IMG/VR virus record: IMGVR_UViG_3300046001_003584
Direction: 5' to 3' (one strand)
Origin: an uncultured virus (IMG/VR IMGVR_UViG_3300046001_003584)
Lineage: Duplodnaviria > Heunggongvirae > Uroviricota > Caudoviricetes
Length of the DNA stretch: 20,000 bases
The translations under genes were made by a program, and so were the position numbers. Of this stretch, positions 8,801-13,342 are shown piece by piece (position 1 is the stretch's first letter; each line of letters begins with the position of its first letter). A model generated the notes under the pieces. It worked only from the letters and a program-made list of their open reading frames with translations, was not told the DNA's origin and searched no databases.

Positions 8801-9745
8801 ATGAATATAAAAAGTACTGTTATCTATTGGATACATCTACCGGAACACACTAATGCAGCTACCGACGGATATGTTGGAGTCTCTAAAGATTATGCCCGTA
8901 GGTTAAAAGGACATTTGAATGACATTAATAACAAGAAACATAAAAATCCACATCTAATACATGCAGTTAGGAAATATGGATGGGACAATCTAATCAAAGA
9001 TGTTATCTTATGCGGTGAAGAATCTTATTGCTATGAAATGGAAGAAATACTAAGACCAAAAAAAGCAACTGGATGGAACATTGCTCCCGGTGGACATAGA
9101 GGACCAGGTTGGACAAAAGGCAGACCTAAAAGTAAAGAATCCATCCAAAAACAAAAAGCGTCAATTGCACCTTTCAATGAAGCAAAACGACTTGAAAGAA
9201 ACAAAAAAAGAGAAGAAAGATTGCATCAACGAGAACTAAACCGGCTATCCAAAATTCGTCAACTGGAAGAAAAAAATAAGGTCAAAGAAATTAAAAAATT
9301 AGAAAATGAAGAAAAAATAAAAAGGCGGGTCGGCGAGCGTGATAGAAGAAAACAAAAAGCAATAGACAACGGCACATACGGTTCAAAACCCAATTACAAT
9401 AATCGGCCATTCTGCAATAAATGTAACAAGAATCACGCAGCAGTGAACTATAAACGTGCCGGTGTTACACATTACAGAAGCATATGTGATGAATGTAGTA
9501 GGAAGAAGCAGAAGCAAAAACCACAAAAAGCCAATTGGACTAAGAGTGGTTATAAGAAAAAAGCCACATGTGATTTATGTGGCTTTAAGAGTTTATTCGT
9601 TACACAAATAACAGTATTTCATGTTGATGGGCACTTGGATCACAATGAACAAACTAATCTACGCAGCATTTGCTTAAACTGCATAGAAGTTGTGAAAAAG
9701 AAAGAGATTACTTGGAGACGGGGAGACCTTGAGATTGACTATTGA
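8801..9745 (+). CDS. GIY-YIG homing-endonuclease-like domain fused to a C-terminal Zn-finger/HNH-like domain
   Basis: N-terminus VIYWIH..GYVGVS..RRLKGH..KYGWDN..YEMEE..GWNIAPGG, then NUMOD3-like KGRPKSKESIQK, a charged coil, and four CxxC pairs with FHVDGHLDHNEQTNLRSICLNC. Confidence 0.8.
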   Translation: MNIKSTVIYWIHLPEHTNAATDGYVGVSKDYARRLKGHLNDINNKKHKNPHLIHAVRKYGWDNLIKDVILCGEESYCYEMEEILRPKKATGWNIAPGGHRGPGWTKGRPKSKESIQKQKASIAPFNEAKRLERNKKREERLHQRELNRLSKIRQLEEKNKVKEIKKLENEEKIKRRVGERDRRKQKAIDNGTYGSKPNYNNRPFCNKCNKNHAAVNYKRAGVTHYRSICDECSRKKQKQKPQKANWTKSGYKKKATCDLCGFKSLFVTQITVFHVDGHLDHNEQTNLRSICLNCIEVVKKKEITWRRGDLEIDY

Positions 9746-10437: not shown

Positions 10438-11235
10438 CTAACCTTGGACCCACGTTAAGGGAAAAGAAAAATCCACATACTTCTTCAAATCTTCAATGAG
10501 TAATTCCATTGCTGCTTTACCTTCTGCTTTCATAGCAGTACCGTTCAATGATGTGCCACCACCCGGACCAGCAATAGTTCCAAATTTTTCACGGGCTTCT
10601 CCGATCATAAGTTTAAGATTAGCTAAAACAAAGTCACCGATCCATACTCCAGCACCCGGGTCTTGCAGTAATATTTCTTCTGTCTTTTGTACATCGGCCC
10701 ATATCAATACATGTTCCCCTGATCCTTTTGGATCTCGCACAATACGCAATACTTTGGACACTGGATTAAATGTATATGTTACATAACCACCAAACATTCT
10801 TGCTGCTAATTTAACATACCCTGCATAGAAATCATATGTTGCCATACCACCGGCATAGTTATAGTTAAGTAAGTATGTATTCAAAATAGCACTGGAGAAA
10901 GGATCAAAACTACTACTTGACGGGCCTGTTTCTAAACCAATTGATCTACGGAAAATACTTCTAACATTGATAAACTCTGCGGGAAGAGTATATGTATCTA
11001 CATTTTTCTCAATAGTCATCAATATGTACGATTCCTCAGTGGCTGCTTGTGCCCTTTGACGATATATCTTTATGGCATAGGTGTATGCTGCTTCATAATG
11101 CTGCGGGTCTAATTCAAGGTCAATCATACCATCACCTAAACGATATCTTAAATTAGTGAATAATAACTCTTTTAATTCATCTAGGTTTAATCCAGTTGGT
11201 GTAGAAAGAACTGATGCTGTTGGATATGTTGACAT
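10438..11235 (-). CDS. gp13: Neck protein (T4 gp13-like head-tail adaptor)
   Basis: RLGDGMIDLELD..Y, and C-terminal W..DF.LA..K..IGEAREKF..IAGPGGGTSLNG..MK.EG pattern of gp13. Confidence 0.85.
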   Translation of the reverse strand: MSTYPTASVLSTPTGLNLDELKELLFTNLRYRLGDGMIDLELDPQHYEAAYTYAIKIYRQRAQAATEESYILMTIEKNVDTYTLPAEFINVRSIFRRSIGLETGPSSSSFDPFSSAILNTYLLNYNYAGGMATYDFYAGYVKLAARMFGGYVTYTFNPVSKVLRIVRDPKGSGEHVLIWADVQKTEEILLQDPGAGVWIGDFVLANLKLMIGEAREKFGTIAGPGGGTSLNGTAMKAEGKAAMELLIEDLKKYVDFSFPLTWVQG

Positions 11236-11254
11236 ATATGTTACCTAATAAGTG

Positions 11255-11262
11255 TATTTATC
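11255..11262 (-). promoter_or_regulatory. Late promoter GATAAATA for the neck gene
   Basis: 19 nt upstream of ATG 11235. Confidence 0.7.
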
Positions 11263-11295
11263 TGGGTATTACTGATTTGTTTATTCTATTTCTAG

Positions 11296-11735
11296 GCAAA
11301 GGCGAGTAGATATAAAATACCTACTCGCCAAAAAGGTGTCTATTCCTGAGGCCCTTACGGGAGTGCGATGATGAATTCAAAAATTACAGTGGAGGATTGT
11401 CTATGTCTCACTAACCCGTAAAGGGATTTTGCCGTATTCGCTGTGTGTTAAATCTTCAATTCATCAGGTAGATTTAACCAGCCCGCGCCCTCTATCGCTA
11501 TCACTATGACGCGGCAATGCTTATAGTAGATTACTCTATCTCAACCAGTAAGGTACAGGAAACGTGAACTGCTAGTGAGCAGGCGTTTAGGCATCCCGAA
11601 GGGTAGTCCTGTAAATTGGATGTTGGCATTCATCTTAACTACCGTCACCGCATGGATTGTGGACGGATTAATGGCACACTTCAAGGCGGCGCTGCCTATA
11701 AGCCAATAATGAAAGTAGGGCTACTGCCCTACTTA
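11296..11735. ncRNA. Candidate large structured non-coding element (RNA or ssDNA), family unrecognised
   Basis: ORF-free, visibly GC-richer than other intergenic gaps, with about 10 stems, a multi-way junction and a 9-bp loop-distal pairing (see findings). Confidence 0.55.
11713..11734. terminator. Hairpin, probable terminator of mazG (possibly bidirectional)
   Basis: AAGTAGGGC-TACT-GCCCTACTT, a perfect 9-bp stem directly after the mazG stop. Confidence 0.7.
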
Positions 11736-12176
11736 TTAAATATCATTAGCTTTACGATTCTCGCTATACAATGCGTCAAACTTTCCACCGGGGTAGCGTG
11801 ACTCTAGTTTGCGTACATTCTCTGCAATTACTTCATTAGGATCAAGTTTCAATGCACGACATGCATTTATCCAGTACCACATAATGTCACCGAGTTCACG
11901 TTTCATATGGAAGACATTTTCATCAGTGAGGGGTTTACCCTGAAAAATGATCTTCTTGGGCACTTCAATAAATTCACCACTTTCTGCGGCTAATCCCAAA
12001 CATGCAGTAAGTAGCAACGGGATGTTAACATCAGGACCGTGCTTCATCTCACCGTCAACTAATTCGTAATTAGCATCAAGCCGATCACATGTATCCATAA
12101 ATGTAGTCAAGTCATTGCTTGCTTTGCTTGTTACAGCTTCTACGAAATCTTTGTATTTGTTTAAATCTATATTCAT
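11736..12176 (-). CDS. mazG: MazG-like nucleoside triphosphate pyrophosphohydrolase
   Basis: LGLAAESGEFIEVPKK..KRELGDIMWY..NVRKLESRYP. Start set to ATG 12176, coupled to the upstream stop (TAATG). Confidence 0.9.
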   Translation of the reverse strand: MNIDLNKYKDFVEAVTSKASNDLTTFMDTCDRLDANYELVDGEMKHGPDVNIPLLLTACLGLAAESGEFIEVPKKIIFQGKPLTDENVFHMKRELGDIMWYWINACRALKLDPNEVIAENVRKLESRYPGGKFDALYSENRKANDI

Positions 12177-13342
12177 TACCATGCTTTCAAAATTATCATT
12201 GACTCATTAAACCTGCCATTCGGCGTAGAGGCTACTGCTTTAATATCTGTGAAATATTTTCGTGCAGCCGGCTTGCTCCCCATAACTTCTTTAAGTTGTT
12301 CCCCTGGTTTGCGTAGTGTTTTGACTTCGCTCTTTGCTGAATCAAATCCTAGCAGTGTACTACCCTTAACAGTAAACACCTTGCTATACTCATCAGCAAT
12401 GTAGTGATGAAGGCGCCGCTTTGCAGTATCATAGGCCCACGCTTCACTTGCACCATGCAACTTTGTAGGGTGAATGCTAATCAAGTCTAGCTTTGCAGCC
12501 GCATCCTTGAACACCTTCAAGTATTTCAATTTAGCAACAATCTTTTCAACAGGTACAGCCTTCTTCTTGCGAGGAGCCTTGCTTGCTTTCTTAATGCTAA
12601 TGTAGCTGTTCAAGTCACTGAGAACCCCATCAATGAATTTGAGAATGTTACGAATCTGAACCTTACCTAGAAACCTGTAACCCTCTTTAAGATACTCGTC
12701 ACCGTCAGAAAGTTTCTGAAATTCAGCTTGTTTGCGTTTCCAGATTTCAACAATGATTGGGATATGCTGTGGCATAACATTATATTTTGCCACGATATCA
12801 ACTGTCTTTTCTGTTGCTTTACCTTTAGTAACAAAATCGTCAATCATCCCTTCCATTTCACCTGCTGCTTCTCCCGCCTTTTCTTTTAGAATTTCCTGAA
12901 TATTGGGGCGTGTTGCTACTACAGTTTCCTTAGCAATACTAGTTTGACTAGTTTTCACTTCTGTTTCGGTTAGTGTCTTGATCAGTCGTTTGATGTCATT
13001 TTGCAAGGCAAGTTCTTCATGCTCAGTCAATTCTAGCCCGCGCATTGTCATTCGTGCTATCCAGCACAATGTCAGAATGAATTCACTTTCATGCACTTTC
13101 CTAAGCAATTTGGCTTCATCAGGGCGTTTATTGTAATCTAGATATTGTGCCATCAAATCCCTAGCATCTTTTTTGCTATAGAATCGGGTGTACCAAGTAA
13201 AGCTGCGGGCAAGAGCCGAGAATCGTGCTTCGGTATTAGGTTGAAGTGGGAAGAAAGGTTCTTCACCCATATATTTTGTATCAGCATCACGTGGGTTGAG
13301 TGCTTTTACAAAATGCTCATCCGTATGTTTGCGTGTAGCCAT
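12176..13342 (-). CDS. Hypothetical early protein (388 aa)
   Basis: Long clean ORF with SD and its own consensus sigma70 promoter; helical N-terminal part, basic linker KKASKAPRKKK, C-terminal alpha/beta region. No function recognised. Confidence 0.8.
   Translation of the reverse strand: MATRKHTDEHFVKALNPRDADTKYMGEEPFFPLQPNTEARFSALARSFTWYTRFYSKKDARDLMAQYLDYNKRPDEAKLLRKVHESEFILTLCWIARMTMRGLELTEHEELALQNDIKRLIKTLTETEVKTSQTSIAKETVVATRPNIQEILKEKAGEAAGEMEGMIDDFVTKGKATEKTVDIVAKYNVMPQHIPIIVEIWKRKQAEFQKLSDGDEYLKEGYRFLGKVQIRNILKFIDGVLSDLNSYISIKKASKAPRKKKAVPVEKIVAKLKYLKVFKDAAAKLDLISIHPTKLHGASEAWAYDTAKRRLHHYIADEYSKVFTVKGSTLLGFDSAKSEVKTLRKPGEQLKEVMGSKPAARKYFTDIKAVASTPNGRFNESMIILKAW

Follow-up and report, generated by a model that had tools for sequence, protein, structure and literature searches.

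The 20,000-nt stretch of viral DNA analyzed here (the window) derives from a large T4-like phage and carries genes for the tail sheath, head-tail adaptor, MazG and dNMP kinase; relatives of this phage have genomes of up to 170-370 kb. The question raised by this locus is what occupies the 500-nt gap between the MazG-like pyrophosphatase gene (11736..12182, minus strand; phrog_229) and the gp13-like head-tail adaptor gene (10438..11235, minus strand; phrog_211). An earlier note on this DNA described the gap as free of ORFs, which is borne out by longest closed ORFs of 44 aa on the plus strand and 47 aa on the minus strand, and suggested either an undescribed phage ncRNA or a structured single-stranded DNA element such as a replication origin. 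The first suggestion has held up: comparative sequence analysis supports the presence in the gap of an undescribed, conserved, multi-domain phage ncRNA, on the grounds of covariation, a strand bias of GNRA loops and the absence of Rfam matches. The predicted structured non-coding RNA gene, of ~430 nt, is placed at 11285..11712 on the minus strand by alignments A1 and A2, the loop bias and a covariance model (CM) match at 11530-11670 (minus). Its ends (~11712 to ~11285) follow from conservation, and the gene is co-oriented with mazG, its upstream neighbor, and gp13, its downstream neighbor. Elsewhere in the window, a GIY-YIG-type homing endonuclease gene (8801-9745, plus strand) separates the tail sheath and dNMP kinase genes, to which it is antisense.

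Motif scans yielded 97 full-length matches, 46 of them non-redundant and 56-91% identical to the window, along with many chance matches (including coding false positives) that were removed by nhmmer or inspection. In alignment A1, which holds 45 of the 46 non-redundant members, the longest being excluded, 76 pairs were 93.3% paired by cell, compared with 34-39% in slid controls. Changes on both sides were found for 51 of the 76 pairs against 35.5 +/- 2.1 in shuffles (0/500 reached the observed value); given that the structure was derived from the same, related sequences, these A1 statistics are not to be read as probabilities. A measure of further pair types gave no excess over shuffles (493 of 500), and the long-range pair 11663-11293 and similar pairs of high mutual information were judged phylogenetic. 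The covariation argument holds because many independent pair types occur per helix. We consider this comparative evidence, drawn from aligned homologs, decisive for a real element, and it includes support for the pseudoknot that the earlier note had singled out for such a check. Folding of the single sequence, which that note had proposed to compare with shuffles, exceeds chance only moderately: the z-scores are -2.8 (plus) and -2.5 (minus), with 0/100 shuffles as low, but 11285-11712 on its own has a z of -1.7 (25 shuffles), the same as one of four control tiles.

The strand had been left unresolved, with a lean to plus from G-U pairs; the comparative data favor minus. Of 84 distinct Watson-Crick hairpins whose loops are four bases long, 20 read as GNRA and none as GNYA on the minus strand, and a single one reads as GNRA on the plus strand. 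In the flanks, by comparison, 674 minus-strand hairpins include 42 GNRA and 30 GNYA loops. G-U cells outnumber A-C cells on the minus strand by 117 to 76, a weak lean in the same direction, and two conserved wobble-type positions fit the plus strand better. On the aligned sequences, we take the element to be a minus-strand RNA. The same bias makes it very unlikely that single-stranded DNA acts alone, as an sso- or pas-like origin or a packaging signal to which the RNA would be incidental, even though the G-U excess is weak, relatives carry DNA-type mini-hairpins just downstream, and such motifs are difficult to distinguish from RNA (PMC5737381). Thus, of the two possibilities raised at the outset, ncRNA or origin, the first stands, a body made purely of single-stranded DNA is unlikely, and the two are probably not exclusive. 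Public RNA runs contained 8-14% of the element's words in five cases; the four examined were assembled contigs in which flanking genes were covered equally with the element, and they are therefore uninformative on transcription, strand and ends.

Both borders of the gene are flanked by signals that appear to belong to its neighbors. The terminal 9-bp hairpin that had been counted as part of the element (11713..11734, minus) varies among homologs and resembles a terminator after mazG, outside the RNA. A TAAGTA motif at 11730-35 is a possible promoter; TAARTA occurs upstream of the RNA in 20 of 74 loci against 10.5 expected, and a sigma-70 promoter scan, generic in kind, was at chance level with no site exceeding it. 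On the other side, the late-promoter-like motif GATAAATA of gp13 (11255..11262, minus) is not part of the RNA, because it is present with or without it. In relatives lacking the insert, the gp13 GATAAATA motif lies in the loop of a conserved hairpin (window 11236-11270; gaps in L007-L075).

The predicted fold, read 5' to 3' on the minus strand, begins with Domain I (11619..11709), in which the pseudoknot PK4 joins 11702-06 to 11623-27 in the loop of the P3 hairpin (11631-34/11619-22), all five pairs covarying and 89% paired. An H-type pseudoknot, PK3, combines P1 (11694-97/11684-87; 89%) with a pairing of ~11688-91 and 11675-79 (75%), the latter making it the weakest of the pseudoknots and sensitive to the alignment; the P2 hairpin (11663-66/11642-45) is 97% paired. 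Domain II, a three-way junction (11554..11613), is the most widely conserved part. It is closed by P4 (11607-13/11554-60), which is 98.6% paired with six of seven pairs double-changed in 50 diverse members, and contains P5, of variable length (11593-11604), and P6 (11584-87/11561-64) with a variable hairpin. The conserved linker that follows (11523..11553) bears a hairpin that some members lack, its loop being of the GNRA type (GUAA at 11534-31 in the window; GAAA, GAGA and GCGA in homologs).

Downstream of the linker, the P8 stem (11510-14/11483-87; region 11483..11514) presents a loop, 11491-99, that forms the long-range PK2 with 11300-11310 (99.5% paired; pair types CG 37/UA 8, UA 28/AU 16 and GC 44/AU 1). 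P9 (11479-82/11440-43; region 11440..11482) carries P10 (11471-77/11448-54), in which all seven pairs covary, and the P10 loop (11459-66) pairs with 11369-76 in PK1. P11 (11427-31/11378-82; region 11378..11431) closes P12 (11423-25/11415-17) and P13 (11409-12/11388-91), whose loop region, 11394-11409, is highly conserved. After a variable hairpin with a GUAA loop (11352-61) comes the first copy, X1 (11341-51; region 11341..11361 with the hairpin), of a direct repeat; then the 3' hairpin P15 (11321-29/11301-09; region 11300..11329), with a conserved 3' arm and a variable opposite arm; and, ~53 nt after X1, the second copy, X2 (11287..11296). Because the conserved 3' arm of P15 also forms PK2, the two are mutually exclusive, and the 3' end can therefore switch between them.

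Much of the architecture read from the single sequence survives in this fold. The five helices given with coordinates in the earlier note are letter-perfect and the remaining arms it listed lie where it placed them; its pseudoknot between 11369-77 and 11458-66 corresponds to PK1, which is 98% paired over 11369-76/11459-66 and includes three covarying pairs. That single pseudoknot is one of four, the further pairings PK2, PK3 and PK4 having been missed. Two of its helices gave way to better supported ones: the TTGCCG/CGGCAA helix is 76-80% paired in 63 homologs versus 98-100% for 11483-87/11510-14, and the TGGC/GCCA helix 43-58% versus 87-88% for 11623-27/11702-06. Its hairpin at 11301-09/11321-29 is present, but only 68% Watson-Crick, and competes with the conserved PK2.

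One feature of the core invites comparison with group I introns. A possible P7-like helix pairs 11604-08 with 11399-403, with three of five pairs invariant and a fourth kept in 62 of 63 sequences, and presumably resembles the group I intron consensus. A rearranged group I core is nevertheless largely refuted and barely credible: the fifth pair is A.A in 53 of 63 sequences, the first two bases lie within the covarying P4, the G is replaced in wider members, and the element is intergenic and lacks an Rfam intron match at E up to 10. Likewise, RNase P RNA was rejected, with no Rfam match (E up to 10) and a look-alike bulged stem that is a local hairpin with its first bases in the covarying P9.

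Nothing matched in Rfam searches run with E limits of 1 on the window, 10 on the gap and 5 on 14 homolog loci, so that novelty stands against Rfam, and ARAGORN found no tRNA or tmRNA gene in the window. These results agree with the earlier statement that no tRNA, tmRNA, RNase P or intron signature is visible; frame-breaking indels among homologs further discount tmRNA and tRNA. HEARO and omega RNAs (IscB, TnpB) were set aside, with no CM match and no adjacent IscB or TnpB, as were retron, DRT and DGR template RNAs, with no cognate reverse transcriptase. Covariance models of ROOL, GOLLD, OLE and raiA produced no match. The family is not described in the literature searched, including the searchable supplement of Fremin 2023 (PMC10690425), which contains none of its motifs and whose unreadable remainder may list a fragment.

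We then asked where else the element occurs. It is present in 4 of 63 distinct mazG-gp13 gaps, 36 of the gaps being at most 51 nt long and others containing small ORFs; its acceptance of varied small ORFs makes the slot a hot spot for insertions. Of the 64 members with sufficient flank, 50 have gp13 within the next three ORFs, and those examined outside the gp13 context mostly belong to small phages, a single one belonging to a large phage. With distant members included, the family comprises 77 distinct domain-II sequences. The P2-hairpin word of the distant members marks at least 120 more loci, 82 of them distinct, and a domain-II model scores 19 of 19 tested loci of this kind at E 1e-21 to ~1e-3. 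Three of the five large-contig members considered below (L546, L520 and L542), selected by the shared word, are weak CM matches at E ~1e-3, which weakens their use as evidence on genome position. At five loci (L528, L529, L533, L551 and L578), what follows the P2 hairpin word is a shorter structure of another kind, and the surrounding genes differ as well. There was no blastn match among INPHARED phages or, for one distant member, among plasmids; three 19-mer matches in cellular genomes proved to be non-homologs, and the CM found nothing in a sample of 121 genomes of one bacterial family under stricter filters. Among complete genomes, the family is absent from G004 and G006 and represented once in G012 and twice in G014, where one copy precedes gp13. 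The RNA family occurs in both huge and small freshwater phages.

Among the small carriers, the complete 31-kb phages G025 and G026 each carry a single intergenic copy. Their 79 ORFs include no match to polymerase, primase, helicase, Rep or integrase families, and many matched no family at all, so that the silence of PHROG is no proof that replication genes are absent. TAAATA motifs before genes are common to G025, G026 and the large phages, which hints at helper dependence, and satellite status is possible for G025, G026 and G027. These three (L475-L480) are phages of 31-41 kb with virion and terminase genes and with TAAATA motifs ahead of their genes, and replication genes are undetected in G025 and G026. 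Comparison of slot swaps in small phages was limited to the 2-3 relatives found. A ~140-aa protein family is encoded 3' of the RNA at six small-phage loci (L368:1113-1535, L170:1489-1914, L352, L428, L342 and L346), with no Pfam or PHROG match and no counterpart found in five large genomes; in two small phages, the first ORF after the RNA (L480:3500-3766 and L475:15008-15247) belongs to Pfam PF12843 (QSregVF_b).

Size, four pseudoknots, GNRA loops and this patchy distribution resemble ROOL and GOLLD, which are accessory phage RNAs with kissing loops (PMC5737381, PMC12286853). The present RNA shares with them a large, ornate, multi-pseudoknot fold, patchy presence in phages and variable peripheral helices, and differs in its length (~430 nt versus ~580 and often >800), in its X1-hairpin-X2 end with a downstream DNA hairpin in relatives, and in that no tRNA is found in the window. 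The element might accordingly be a trans-acting RNA that forms a scaffold or cage, or that works as a decoy against proteins or defenses of the host. Its loop-loop pairings would then possibly be intermolecular, and a protein specific to the lineage would bind or process X1 and X2. The two copies in G014 and the late-gene surroundings in 50 of 64 contexts would also suit this role, which we nonetheless consider rather unlikely: it leaves unexplained the strand-specific DNA-type hairpin downstream, the slot and 3' module shared with an unrelated RNA family and the proximity to the flip in gene orientation (all described below), and the RNA has no constant partner gene, the commonest small-phage downstream ORF having no counterpart found in the five large genomes.

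In the 3' module, X1 and X2 are 47-60 nt apart among members and change jointly, in at least eight sequence classes, with cores that differ between lineages; another subfamily shows the same co-change, with 11 classes among 31 loci and a single-base co-change between L516 and L538. In ten divergent members, X1 and X2 share words of 4-11 nt, compared with a mean of 5.0 between members. No complement of X was found at a constant position inside the RNA in 14 members. Because X1 and X2 are identical in sequence, X1 could pair with the template strand at X2, and X2 or the sequence just beyond it is our proposed site of an RNA-DNA hybrid at which priming would occur.

Such guide-like covariation could also belong to a mobile or self-processing element of the RNA-guided or ribozyme type. 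X1 would then be the guide or recognition site through which X2 is cleaved, nicked or recombined, either in DNA or in the RNA made from the element. The complex conserved core, the unrelated genomic slots and the two copies in G014 fit this possibility, which is quite improbable on other grounds: empty sites lack X2, there is no clean excision junction, the slot also accepts small ORFs, no Rfam ribozyme matches, and the window's subfamily has no constant nuclease, transposase or recombinase neighbor. In another subfamily, the family phrog_447, which also gave a weaker homing-endonuclease match, adjoins 31 of 102 flanks. Alternatively, the direct repeat around a segment of fixed length at the 3' end might mark an RNA template on which a reverse transcriptase jumps between X1 and X2, which we take to be akin to telomerase or DRT. 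This we regard as extremely unlikely, as RVT_1 is found in none of five carrier genomes (the control was positive in 3 of 14) and no reverse transcriptase is among the neighbors.

Beyond X2, many relatives carry a further hairpin. Of 55 loci of the wider family, 28 have the motif [GT]AGC-GN(N)A-GCG downstream of the RNA on its sense strand and none has it on the opposite strand, against a background of 0.012 per 400 nt; since 9 of the 28 loops are non-GNRA, the hairpin suits DNA. A looser form was found at 10 of 67 loci of the first set, mostly outside the gp13 context. In the window, X2 is followed by an A-rich tract (11263..11286, minus) with no GAGC-GN(N)A-GCG hairpin after it, and most other gp13-slot members likewise lack this DNA hairpin, a few retaining full or worn forms. 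The GAGC-GN(N)A-GCG motif presumably corresponds to a pas, or PriA, site. The ColE1 record NC_001371 (L461) has GAGC-GNA-GCG once on its plus strand, at position 1332, presumably downstream of the RNA II region and on the same strand. In the ColE1 model, an upstream RNA segment matches a downstream site.

ColE1 replication relies on an RNA primer with an n' pas downstream (PMC3167613, PMC5778457). The present RNA resembles RNA II in being a folded transcript of several hundred bases followed by a same-strand GAGC-GNA-GCG motif, in carriers that may be without replication genes. It differs in having no Rfam match to RNA II or RNA I, and thus no RNA I found for it (and model R1 finds nothing in L461), in its four covarying pseudoknots and lineage-specific direct repeat in place of G-tracts, and in its residence in tailed phages, including 360-kb ones, with a window copy that lacks the hairpin. 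A second comparison is offered by the PE1-T origin of Ceduovirus (c2, of Lactococcus), where a non-coding PE1 transcript functions without phage proteins (PMC7150918). There, too, a tailed-phage origin is built on a non-coding transcript and sequence-unrelated origin types share one slot; unlike here, the phages belong to a different group, and a similar working of the present RNA is our inference. The plasmid-origin motifs ARRPOF, GEBRO and PAGEV (PMC5737381) are likewise structured, a few hundred bases long and tied to replicons, and ARRPOF lies within a region that supports replication without a rep gene; by contrast, the present RNA matches none in Rfam, occurs in phage and has a more complex fold. 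The present RNA most plausibly works like ColE1 RNA II or the c2 PE1 transcript.

Genome position bears on this comparison. In all five large contigs tested that have an RNA of the wider family, the RNA lies within 8 kb of a flip in gene orientation, and in four of the five it occupies a slot between SbcC and baseplate-hub genes, which in the fifth, G163, is present in a rearranged version. The distance to the cumulative GC-skew minimum is at most 4.4 kb in four of the five: G161, G162 and G164 have their minimum 4.3 kb upstream of the RNA, G165 has it 18.8 kb away, and in G163, the one case in which the skew follows the RNA, rearrangement has put the flip 7.9 kb away with the skew minimum 0.67 kb from the RNA. 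Skew at four-fold sites has the same sign on both strands; it therefore mostly follows gene orientation and carries no independent replication signal. The GC-skew check proposed in the earlier note was uninformative for the window and for the 31-kb phages. The gp13 slot is ~110-150 kb from the orientation flip, and neither the gp13-slot copies of G012 and G014 nor the other G014 copy is near a skew minimum.

In relatives of the window phage, the corresponding slot holds a different RNA-like element. This second conserved element of ~430 nt, family B (L637:500-960), was found in 9 of 25 records and in all three complete genomes (G004 at 55.2 kb, G006 at 98.5 kb and G012 at 293.6 kb; L640-L648), and was not found in the spans fetched of the five large contigs above. 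It came to light through a search for the GAGC hairpin motif and matches neither Rfam nor the profile of the present family. A resolvase-like gene and, facing it, a convergent baseplate-hub gene flank family B (SbcC-resolvase-[RNA]-hub), and its 3' layout is that of the present RNA, repeat-hairpin-repeat followed by a GAGC hairpin. A member of the present family occupies the same position between resolvase and hub in L263, and the hub gene is in the flank of 14 of 113 loci. In the three complete genomes, family B is ~5 kb from the flip and points outward, so that all eight slot RNAs (five of the present family and three of family B) are <8 kb from an orientation flip; the distances of family B to the skew minimum are 5.1, 7.4 and 38.7 kb, the last in G012.

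Taken together, we see about an even chance that the element supplies the RNA of a replication-origin module primed by RNA in the manner of ColE1 or c2, of which the window's copy would be accessory. In such a module, an RNA polymerase would pass X2 and the folded RNA would present X1, which would pair with the template strand at X2 and seed a persistent R-loop, a step that the P15/PK2 switch may gate. The 3' end of the RNA, perhaps trimmed by RNase H, could then prime leading-strand synthesis in the A-rich tract, and, in members that keep the DNA hairpin, the displaced strand would expose GAGC-GN(N)A-GCG for loading of helicase and primase (the primosome). The module might be the sole origin of the small phages, and several large-phage lineages would have the family in their main origin-like slot. 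In the window's lineage, family B would fill the main slot and the gp13 copy would serve as a dispensable second origin from which the DNA hairpin has been lost, or would be a module that has drifted to another use. Against an origin speak the facts that the window's copy is optional, is far from the skew minimum and lacks the DNA hairpin, and that searches showed no resemblance in sequence to ColE1 or to any plasmid.

A bolder and less probable reading is that huge freshwater phages and their probable 30-40-kb satellites use interchangeable multi-pseudoknot RNAs in which self-guided strand invasion starts replication, an internal guide of 6-10 nt, X1, pairing with the template at X2; fast joint change of X1 and X2 could set the origin specificity of helper and satellite, and the folded core may make or process the primer end. 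If the origin reading is true, it would point to how phages of 300 kb and more, and small phages without replication genes, begin DNA synthesis, and ColE1-like RNA priming would then take in an RNA of unrelated structure and much greater intricacy. The co-change of X1 and X2 allows a direct mutate-and-rescue test. Regardless of function, this is a new family of large ornate RNAs with many natural variants and four covarying pseudoknots, suited to structure work.

Further non-coding elements were observed in G014. Another long ORF-poor element, at 183.0-183.8 kb (plus), ends in the GAGC hairpin motif, and a duplicated non-coding repeat of ~330 nt with the GAGC motif is located at 76.8-77.2 kb (plus) and ~184.0-184.4 kb (minus; both elements in L503 and L509).
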